Assembly (NCBI GenBank): GCA_948485625.1
Contig: CAOMRW010000010.1
Span: forward strand, 25 to 64,024
Source of the DNA: an uncultured Clostridia bacterium
GTDB taxonomy: Bacteria; Bacillota; Clostridia; TANB77; CAG-508
DNA length: 64,000 nucleotides
Reading direction: 5' to 3'
In this document: positions 63,105 to 63,154 of the stretch, one piece after another
How the letters are laid out: each line of letters opens with the position of its first letter
How positions within the stretch are numbered: position 1 is the stretch's first letter
Made by a program: the position numbers and the translations under genes
The notes under the pieces: generated by a model
What the model saw: only the letters and a program-made list of their open reading frames with translations
The model's database searches: none
What the model was told of the DNA's origin: nothing

Positions 63105-63154
63105 TGTCCCATTGGGGACGTTTCTTTTTGGACATTTTTGTCCCACTGGGGACA
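63105..63154. repeat. Family-2 GC-rich palindromic repeat in the ileS 5' leader
   Basis: tgtcccattggggacgtttctttttggacatttttgtcccactggggaca aligns with 17582-17629. It lies 17-66 nt upstream of the ileS ATG. Confidence 0.85.

Follow-up and report, generated by a model that had tools for sequence, protein, structure and literature searches.

In a stretch of 64,000 nucleotides (nt) of DNA from an uncultured Clostridia bacterium (contig CAOMRW010000010.1; hereafter the window, of about 25% GC and with the majority of its genes on the minus strand) we found that a GC-rich palindromic module of about 55 nt, first noticed upstream of the genes addA and ileS, belongs to a family of short dispersed repeats. 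We interpret this family as REP/BIME-like, and in its details TIRtron-like, non-autonomous repeats that populate the intergenic space of gut Clostridia with genomes of 25-32% GC, a reading to which we assign a probability of roughly 80%. The module is not a gene-specific switch of addA and ileS. An earlier sequence-only reading of the window had placed it at a fixed position in the 5' leaders of these two genes and had left open whether it comprised operators of one dimeric regulator, RNA hairpins or REP-like elements; the last of these options is the one borne out by copies that have neither a conserved orientation nor a leader-specific position. The repeat family is thus an addition to an already known type of REP-like repeat and not a new type.

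Architecture of the repeat family

The two copies that had drawn attention, module A (gene strand, 63154 to 63105: TGTCCCCAGTGGGACAAAAATGTCCAAAAAGAAACGTCCCCAATGGGACA) and module B (gene strand, 17629 to 17582: TGTCCCAAATGGACAAAAATGTCCCAAAAGAAACGTCCCTCTTGGACA), do align nearly base for base, with 42 of 50 aligned positions identical. As had also been stated correctly, both are co-directional with the minus-strand gene downstream of them, A ending 16 nt before the ATG of ileS and B 21 nt before that of addA (17560), and each stops 3-4 nt short of the ribosome-binding site (RBS; GGAGG or GGAGTG). Module A is intercistronic, with the stop codon of the DUF1653 gene (63199) on one side and the RBS and start of ileS on the other. 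The true start of ileS is 63088, preceded by GGAGG; the longest ileS open reading frame (ORF) begins instead at an ATG at 63112, within repeat A, and repeats of this kind thereby shift predicted start codons. The inverted copy announced upstream of the DUF1653 gene is likewise present (module C; 43 of 52 positions identical to B).

Comparison of the copies from different genomes revealed that the full module consists of two units. Unit a, AGATG-TGTCCC-N4-TGGACA, is followed by a linker of four A (A4), after which comes unit b, a hairpin TGTCCA...TGGACA whose loop holds the conserved core GAAA-CGTCCC. The consensus of real copies is (t)a(t/a)AGATG-TGTCCC-N4-TGGACA-AAAA-TGTCC-AAAcgGAAA-CGTCCCC-aaaT-GGACA. 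On the left, AGATG is conserved at 73-98% per position, and on the right the module ends at GGACA, beyond which there is only a weak preference for T. Among the listed copies the units form mosaics that include a-A4-b, b'-A4-b (long perfect palindromes), b'-A4-b-T4-a' triplets and tandems. Within 12 inverted doublets, which hold 9 different spacer sequences, complementarity of the spacer arms amounts to 86% inside one copy as against 50% between copies.

The same genomes also carry sister families that keep the core (G/A)(G/A)AC-Y-GTCCC and enclose it in stems that are different in sequence yet complementary. The stems observed around the core are TGTCCA/TGGACA in the module family, ATGAAACA/TGTTTCAT in what we call family 1 of the window, and further ATGAGACA/TGTCTCAT, AGGGATT/AATCCCT, TTGCCA/TGGCAA, GAGGTGTTTTT/AAAAACACCTC and TGAGAGAA/TTCTCTCA; at least eight unrelated stem sequences are in use. 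Perfect stems of at least 7 base pairs (bp) surround the core in 42% of 201 cases, compared with 13% when partners are swapped and 0.6% after shuffling. To judge from this pattern, the variable enclosing stems would fit a hairpin that is recognised in single-stranded form, with DNA and RNA equally compatible. No target-site duplication was detected: direct repeats of at least 3 nt across the ends occur in 1.6% of the copies versus 1.3% in a partner-swapped control, and in 8% versus 5% if the left boundary is shifted by 5 nt. This is as expected for Y1 transposition.

Distribution, position and orientation

A scan with the pattern GGACAAAAATGTCC-N8-11-GTCC over a genome collection holding one genome per species matched at least 113 stretches. 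About 95 of these are in gut metagenome-assembled genomes (MAGs) of 25-32% GC, often with several matches per genome, from hosts labelled 'uncultured Clostridia' or 'Clostridium sp.' (e.g. Clostridium sp. CAG:575), and the remaining ones are isolated chance matches in high-GC genomes. The 18-base core is present in at least 109 copies at 96 loci from dozens of low-GC gut Clostridia species. The family explains the recurrent GC-rich motif in these AT-rich gut genomes.

Only 10 of the 110 listed copies lie inside ORF calls, and the intergenic ones (about 90%) occupy gaps with a median length of about 110 nt, typically 60-120 nt. While 35 listed copies are co-directional with both neighbours (in the order stop, element, start), 38 are antiparallel to both, and a search for a bias in orientation or toward leaders found none in the 110. 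In the co-directional copies the b end falls 9-25 nt before the start codon, which leaves just enough room for an RBS; in the antiparallel copies it falls at -11 to +6 nt of the stop codon of the preceding gene, and copies abutting a stop codon are as frequent as those abutting an RBS. The neighbouring genes are functionally unrelated, ileS, addA, lepA, radA, miaA, pheT and eno being among them. With orientations evenly split and copies also at stop codons and within ORFs, the notion of a fixed-position leader module common to addA and ileS is not supported; the apparently fixed position arises because an element of about 55 nt sits in intergenic gaps of 60-120 nt. This removes the tempting false lead of a regulator shared by the two genes.

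Within the window, TGTCC-N3-7-GGACA is seen 4 times against an expectation of 0.06, and the 14-mer GGACAAAAATGTCC has 4 exact occurrences. The hexamer TGTCCC/GGGACA occurs 20 times versus 8.2 +/- 2.7 in dinucleotide shuffles, 0 of 100 of which reach 20. The enrichment of this hexamer noted in the sequence-only reading is therefore real, although the expectation is 8.2 and not about 4. The accompanying statement that it is almost always noncoding was too strong, since 11 of the 20 matches are intergenic; nevertheless, intergenic DNA makes up just 13% of the window and the intergenic enrichment is strong (binomial p = 9e-6). Of the 9 coding matches, 3 fall in related in-frame repeats of addA.

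A Y1 transposase flanked by the modules in relatives

At several of the recovered loci (numbered with the prefix L) the modules flank a gene for a tyrosine transposase. In L034 a 262-residue ORF (4526-5314) has inverted modules on both sides, and its product matches the Pfam model Y1_Tnp (PF01797) with 52 bits, above the cut-off, and the NCBIfam model REP_Tyr_transpos (NF047646, REP-associated tyrosine transposase) with 53 bits, below the cut-off of 80. Homologues are found beside matched modules in L106, L084 and L092 and more distantly in L043; a database search recovered 2618 homologues, one of which is named RayT by its source. Five further transposase clusters (L115-L140) display the synteny radical-SAM (MiaB-like), small ORF, transposase, radA, disA, and the order MiaB-like, transposase, radA, disA is also that of L106, L092 and L084. 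Inverted modules are present on both flanks of the gene in L034, L106, L092, L115, L116/L117, L124-L128 and L135-L137, and for the transposases of L084 and L134 a module was detected downstream only. The geometry is that of a reverse-oriented module upstream and a forward module just past the stop codon, with the unit-a heads pointing toward the gene. Many contigs of about 1 kb terminate within these flanking modules, as is to be expected of assemblies broken at repeats; short-read assemblies are interrupted by the repeats at the transposase locus.

The transposases are 255-290 residues long. An alignment of 17 sequences revealed the HUH signature N-H-(V/I/T)-H, with both histidines invariant, the motif Y-(I/V)-H-x-N-P (Y---NP), in which the Y, H, N and P are invariant, and a YKWSS motif. 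For the C-terminal 110 residues a helical structure is predicted, and they close with a conserved Q-(L/I)-(S/A)-R...R-K-(I/M)-(I/V)-(E/D)-R; weak matches to HTH_28, HTH_23 or HTH_26 are seen in just 1-3 of the 17 members and to Bac_DnaA_C in 0 of 17. This region may be a helix-turn-helix (HTH)-like tail. An AlphaFold model made from database proteins (predicted local distance difference test score 88) has as its best PDB match 4ER8 (4ER8_A; template-modelling score for the target 0.73, root-mean-square deviation 2.6 Å, E = 3e-7), the REP-associated transposase of E. coli in complex with a REP hairpin, which ranks above the transposases of IS608 and ISDra2. At the level of sequence, a profile of the 17 transposases recovered no relative from PDB at E <= 0.01.

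Two further features were noticed around the transposase gene. In L116, L120-L125 and L134-L137 the adjacent radA is called as two ORFs (of about 111-143 and about 280-310 residues), which in several species lie 13-110 nt apart; another repeat inserted in frame or disruptively could be the cause, or the gene may really be split. An AT-rich palindrome, AAAAGTATAGCA...TGCTATACTTTTTT, is found about 60-130 nt upstream of the transposase start in L084, L092, L116, L124 and L135 and may be the terminator of the upstream gene or an operator.

The arrangement in the relatives and the features of the protein itself suggest that a single-copy HUH/Y1 transposase of the RAYT/TIRYT type would make and maintain the units, and hence mobilise the repeats or keep them in place. 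As with TnpA-REP of E. coli, recognition of the hairpin and its core by the enzyme would take place on single-stranded DNA. Insertions would survive only in short gaps between genes, with the consequence that a 55-nt element comes to adjoin either a stop codon at one end or an RBS at the other, which would account for its apparently fixed position before ileS and addA. Any effect on RNA or expression would be secondary and vary with orientation. Where a copy is co-directional, as A and B are, the transcript would gain two short hairpins with the RBS still open; where it is antiparallel, the upstream stop codon would be followed immediately by a GC-rich hairpin and a T-rich run.

Several points weigh against this reading. 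The mobility of the repeats is something that we infer from sequence, and the position statistics rest on a simple custom ORF caller with an AT-skew filter. No transposase gene was found in the window by tblastn, so the link for this genome runs through its relatives; for the six transposase clusters with an NCBI member, exact-sequence matching returned none from MAG GCA_950096955.1, which was taken as the source, and it is by extension from the relatives that the source genome presumably encodes the enzyme. The flanked transposase loci are orthologous and represent one retained ancestral arrangement and not independent events. The GT[AG]G foot of REPs is absent, with no GTAG or GTGG in the alignment of 109 listed copies, and the commonest arrangement is the direct (head-to-tail) doublet a-A4-b, which is unusual for REPs. 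Finally, the retention of the module between flanking genes that have diverged to about 70% nt identity could point to selection for a host function and not to mere persistence.

Members of the family in the window

A profile built from 109 copies was run against the window with nhmmer and matched modules A, B and C; these 3 full modules are collected in Table 1 together with the partial and sister units of the window. Module C and the expanded unit a next to it are linked via T4 and make up an inverted composite; the two 80-nt expanded copies of unit a are 86% identical to each other. The minimal copy that had been reported between ftsY and the UPF0182 gene was confirmed; it represents a shortened or residual version of the module. 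A terminator-like hairpin, seen by eye at about 59845-59880, follows the stem variant behind ileS.

Table 1. Repeat units of the module family and its sister families in the window
Feature	Position	Strand	Remarks
Module A, complete a-A4-b	63102..63160	-	(AGATA)TGTCCCCAGTGGGACA-AAAA-TGTCCAAAAAGAAACGTCCCCAATGGGACA; nhmmer E = 3e-16
Module B, complete a-A4-b	17577..17632	-	nhmmer E = 6e-13; upstream of addA
Module C, a-A4-b with degenerate first hairpin (TGTATCCC)	63495..63545	+	nhmmer E = 1.6e-10
Unit a with loop insertion of about 58 nt	63546..63625	-	GAGATATGTCCCAAAT[..58 nt..]TGGACA; direct-repeat family D6
Second expanded-loop unit a	22172..22251	-	AAGATGTGTCCCAAAT[..]TGGACA; RBS and start of gene 21472-22152 directly after
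Minimal single hairpin TGTCCAAGATGGACA	46146..46160	not assigned	flush with ftsY stop codon; 21 nt before UPF0182 start
Three sister-family (family 1) units, core GGACTGTCCC, stem ATGAAACA/TGTTTCAT	15995..16191	not assigned	in frame within addA
Intergenic sister-family unit	32046..32114	+	TGAAACATT-TTT-GGACTGTCCC-C-AATGTTTCA
Intergenic sister-family unit, degenerate core (GTACTGTCCC)	59487..59555	+	
Stem variant of the same core	59887..59911	-	TAA-GGATTT-GGGGACGGTCC-AAAAATCC; first base directly after ileS stop codon

Orthologous sites and translated copies

Some copies can be followed at orthologous positions. A module is likewise present in the orthologous gap upstream of addA in L048, where this gene has about 70% nt identity. 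In L089 (about 79% nt identity) ftsY and the UPF0182 gene are separated by a complete a-A4-b module, in a gap 44 nt longer than that of the window, which keeps only the last hairpin.

Other copies are translated, and in this way AddA, LepA and a MiaA-like protein, which are essential, acquire additional peptides. The three family-1 units in the window add about 56 residues to AddA (ETVGTGQKCF...ETFLDCPNCF) before the conserved KIQLFKNFRSR; they are absent from the orthologous AddA of L048. In 9 of the 109 listed copies the ATG in the AGATG head has a Shine-Dalgarno sequence 5-16 nt in front of it. Four of these nine are in-frame N-terminal fusions, three to LepA (L019, L033 and L066) and one to the MiaA-like protein (L088), with extensions of 15-23 residues that read MCPQMDKNVQTETSP... 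Another four (L012, L092, L096 and L113) are mini-ORFs of 20-31 codons ending 7-40 nt past the element, those of L012 and L092 with a stop just past the start codon of the next gene, and L031 has a 4-codon ORF that starts from the AGATG head and ends within the element.

Comparison with known repeat systems

REP/RAYT systems, as outlined in PMC6006769 and PMC5581495, combine GTAG-footed hairpins with a flanked single-copy transposase. The present family resembles the REP, BIME and REPIN repeats of E. coli and the Pseudomonas REPtrons in being made up of short, GC-rich, imperfect palindromes in many dispersed and mostly extragenic copies, which are joined by short linkers into doublets and mosaic clusters and occasionally lie within reading frames. 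As in REPtrons, there is in the relatives an apparently single-copy, vertically inherited HUH/Y1 gene with flanking inverted repeats, the predicted fold is closest to 4ER8, and target-site duplications are lacking. Beyond the missing foot and the prevalence of direct doublets, it differs from REPs in having its conserved CGTC/TGTC core in the loop of a larger hairpin and in having small hairpin stems of only 5-6 bp. The transposase, for its part, is longer than RAYTs (255-290 residues), has the putative HTH-like C-terminal tail and scores under the NCBIfam RAYT cut-off, and the hosts belong to a low-GC Firmicute clade and not to the Proteobacteria that harbour the E. coli and Pseudomonas REPtrons.

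A closer parallel is offered by TIRtrons, which in the account of Di Nocera et al. 2013 (PMC3733652) comprise long RAYT-like 'TIRYT' genes flanked by inverted repeats with the motif GGGGWSAS, some of these repeats forming moderately abundant dispersed families. TIRtrons correspond largely to TnpA-Y1 subclass 2.1, with which Quentin et al. 2018 (PMC6006769) equate TIRYTs; these proteins are long and have a C-terminal HTH, and no REP-like structures were reported near subclass 2.1 genes. RAYT group 1, which corresponds to subclass 2.1, is recorded from Clostridia by Bertels et al. 2017 (PMC5581495). Like TIRtrons, the present loci have a long RAYT-like protein, here with a putative HTH-like C-terminus, flanked by inverted non-GTAG repeats, and these repeats come from a moderately abundant dispersed family of singles, dimers and clusters. 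The inward-facing head of unit a, GTGTCCC(C), is the reverse complement of GGGGACAC, (G)GGGACAC, and was compared with the terminal inverted repeat motif GGGGWSAS only: the two agree at 8 of 8 positions in 12 of 62 copies and at 7 of 8 in 46 of 62. Judged by such features, the system appears to fit the TIRtron description best, its putative placement in subclass 2.1 being by features and not by phylogeny. It departs from subclass 2.1 as characterised in PMC6006769 in that its flanks are hairpin-forming and abundant, and from the TIRtron descriptions in its Firmicute host, the available texts of PMC3733652, PMC6006769 and PMC5581495 giving no Firmicute example.

The conserved core also recalls the CGTC-tagged REPs, whose tag is sometimes TGTC and which include the in-frame Rickettsia repeats RPE-4 and RPE-6 (as surveyed in PMC3733652). 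That survey records them in five phyla, Firmicutes not among them, with no dedicated flanked transposase, and depicts them as an unpaired terminal tag followed by a stem of 8-9 bp with a 4-5 nt loop and a short tail. The shared features are the conserved CGTC with TGTC variants, the loops of 4-5 nt, and, as in RPEs, in-frame insertions in housekeeping and DNA-repair genes, here those for AddA, LepA and the MiaA-like protein; CGTCCCC is present in 36 of 62 copies. Membership in this class was nevertheless rejected, as GTCC here forms one side of a stem of 5-6 bp and the tag is not followed by a stem of 8-9 bp; a flanked transposase, moreover, exists in the relatives. The repeats further resemble miniature inverted-repeat transposable elements (MITEs) such as Correia/NEMIS, RUP, ERIC and BOX in being small, noncoding, gene-adjacent, hairpin-forming and co-transcribed. 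An origin as MITEs derived from DDE-type insertion sequences was discarded, given that there are no terminal inverted repeats of such a sequence and no target-site duplication and that the associated enzyme is a Y1 HUH protein.

The clade would offer a Firmicute system of the REP/RAYT type with an unusual recognition architecture, and one whose transposase class has previously been without reported hairpin repeats, which makes it useful for questions of substrate choice and repeat persistence. Its conserved loop core with variable stems, its placement flush with gene boundaries and its translated insertions should be of interest to specialists in mobile DNA.

The ileS leader and alternative explanations

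The DUF1653-ileS operon has a regulatory element of its own. A full-length T-box leader is present at 63676-63891 (minus strand) with a score of 88.9 bits, just below the Rfam gathering threshold of 93 (E = 8e-20), and was missed by the default Rfam scan. Its specifier position is AUC (Ile), and its own terminator was read by eye. It lies upstream of both the DUF1653 gene (63199-63459) and ileS (59912-63088) and is preceded by a promoter-like site at 63943 to 63916 (minus strand; TTGCAA-16-TATAAT); the distance from ileS back to the T-box and the promoter of the operon is 750 nt. Module C and its expanded unit a, C being antiparallel to the operon, lie between the T-box terminator and the RBS of the DUF1653 gene. 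Hence ileS already has a canonical regulator, and the reading of the modules as a shared leader element receives no support from this operon.

This bears directly on the idea that the module is a dedicated cis-regulatory RNA, riboswitch-like or a site for a translational repressor, acting on the adjacent downstream RBS. That the element ends 9-25 nt before the start in 26 of 46 listed co-directional copies, that the stems covary between sub-families, and that the middle TGTCC has a possible pairing partner in each of the adjacent GGACA, so that alternative folds are allowed, would all suit such an RNA. However, stem covariation is equally expected for the single-stranded DNA hairpin of a Y1 transposase, and half of the copies are antisense to their flanking genes. 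The RNA of the A region folds into two short hairpins at -19.7 kcal/mol (z = -2.1) and that of the B region likewise at -16.3 kcal/mol (z = -1.4), with the RBS unpaired in both leaders, in the minimum-free-energy and centroid folds alike, and with energies near those of shuffled controls, so that occlusion of the RBS by the module hairpins can be set aside. Module C together with the expanded unit a forms one long hairpin (-45 kcal/mol, z = -8.2). No module was matched in Rfam at the gathering threshold across the whole window or at E <= 1 in 63000-64000; a curated cis-regulatory RNA family was rejected on this ground, along with the antisense copies and the separateness of the T-box. We therefore regard the RNA-hairpin option of the sequence-only reading as very unlikely. 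Its other regulatory option, operators whose TGTCC-N-GGACA half-sites would be occupied by one dimeric factor that controls addA, ileS, the DUF1653 gene and further genes together, strikes us as very unlikely too. GGAC/GTCC half-sites do recur at fixed spacings, the core GGAC-N-GTCC being a 9-bp palindrome, and the putative HTH-like tail of the transposase, which in a few members gives weak HTH_23, HTH_26 or HTH_28 matches, could bind double-stranded DNA. An operator regulon was rejected all the same, in that copies follow stop codons as often as they precede starts, in both orientations, occur in arrays and within reading frames, and adjoin genes without functional coherence, and A and B themselves lie downstream of promoter-like sites and not at them.

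A further proposal adds to our preferred explanation and does not replace it, namely that repeats spread by the transposase have since been co-opted by the host as intercistronic punctuation. Antiparallel copies could act as weak terminators or 3' stabilisers and co-directional ones as 5' or internal stabilising hairpins, and the mini-ORFs could couple ribosomes to the gene that follows. The conservation of orthologous copies despite the divergence of their flanking genes points in this direction, as do the b ends flush with stop codons, the Shine-Dalgarno sequences before the AGATG heads of the fusions and mini-ORFs and the terminator-like scores (GC hairpin with T run) on the reverse strand, where the units resemble weak intrinsic terminators, with 3 and 5 sites versus 0.2 expected. 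Yet the stems, at 5-6 bp, are short, the folds are weak, retention is also explicable by repeated insertion at preferred sites or by gene conversion, and the comparable frequency of both orientations speaks against one specific RNA function, for which reasons we consider co-option possible, if on the unlikely side. With still more reserve, and as a tentative and on the whole doubtful synthesis, these threads may be drawn together: the family might be the first case in which abundant REP-like repeats go with a long RAYT of the TIRYT/subclass 2.1 kind that bears an HTH, as well as the first such case from Firmicutes, with a conserved loop core (GGAC-Y-GTCCC, with a CGTC/TGTC tag), freely covarying stems, and gene-boundary elements co-opted as punctuation. 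If this were true, one enzyme could maintain several co-resident stem families, and CGTC-type repeats would acquire an enzyme of their own. Insertion or survival of the elements would be confined precisely to gene boundaries, either directly at the stop codon or, with an ATG that the element itself supplies, between the Shine-Dalgarno sequence and the start, and the elements would serve as punctuation in very compact, AT-rich gut genomes.

Other features of the window

Near the modules, addA itself has a frameshift in its Walker A region at about 17490-17500 (minus strand), with ...LLIAAAAGSRKNSS in one frame and ...GKTAVLVERII in the next; one extra C would explain it, and either a pseudogene or an assembly error would account for it. 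Just upstream of the addA promoter region lies an alanine-rich ORF of 138 residues (17743-18159, minus strand) with a GC content clearly above that of its surroundings, followed by a terminator-like hairpin seen by eye that a terminator scan of the region did not list. A stretch of 178 nt is repeated with 62-90% identity at 35765-35942, 37809-37986 and 39297-39474, the 5' ends of three neighbouring minus-strand genes, which probably encode paralogous N-terminal domains. The direct repeats TTGTCCCAGCAAGCA(C/A)TG(C/A)ATTTGT, two copies of which lie 47 nt apart at 56280-56345 (minus strand), contain the hexamer yet were rejected as members of the family. They are found between the gene for a large serine recombinase (56400-58184) and the next ORF, near tRNA-Thr (58725-58800), and may serve an integrated element as sites for its recombinase or as operators.

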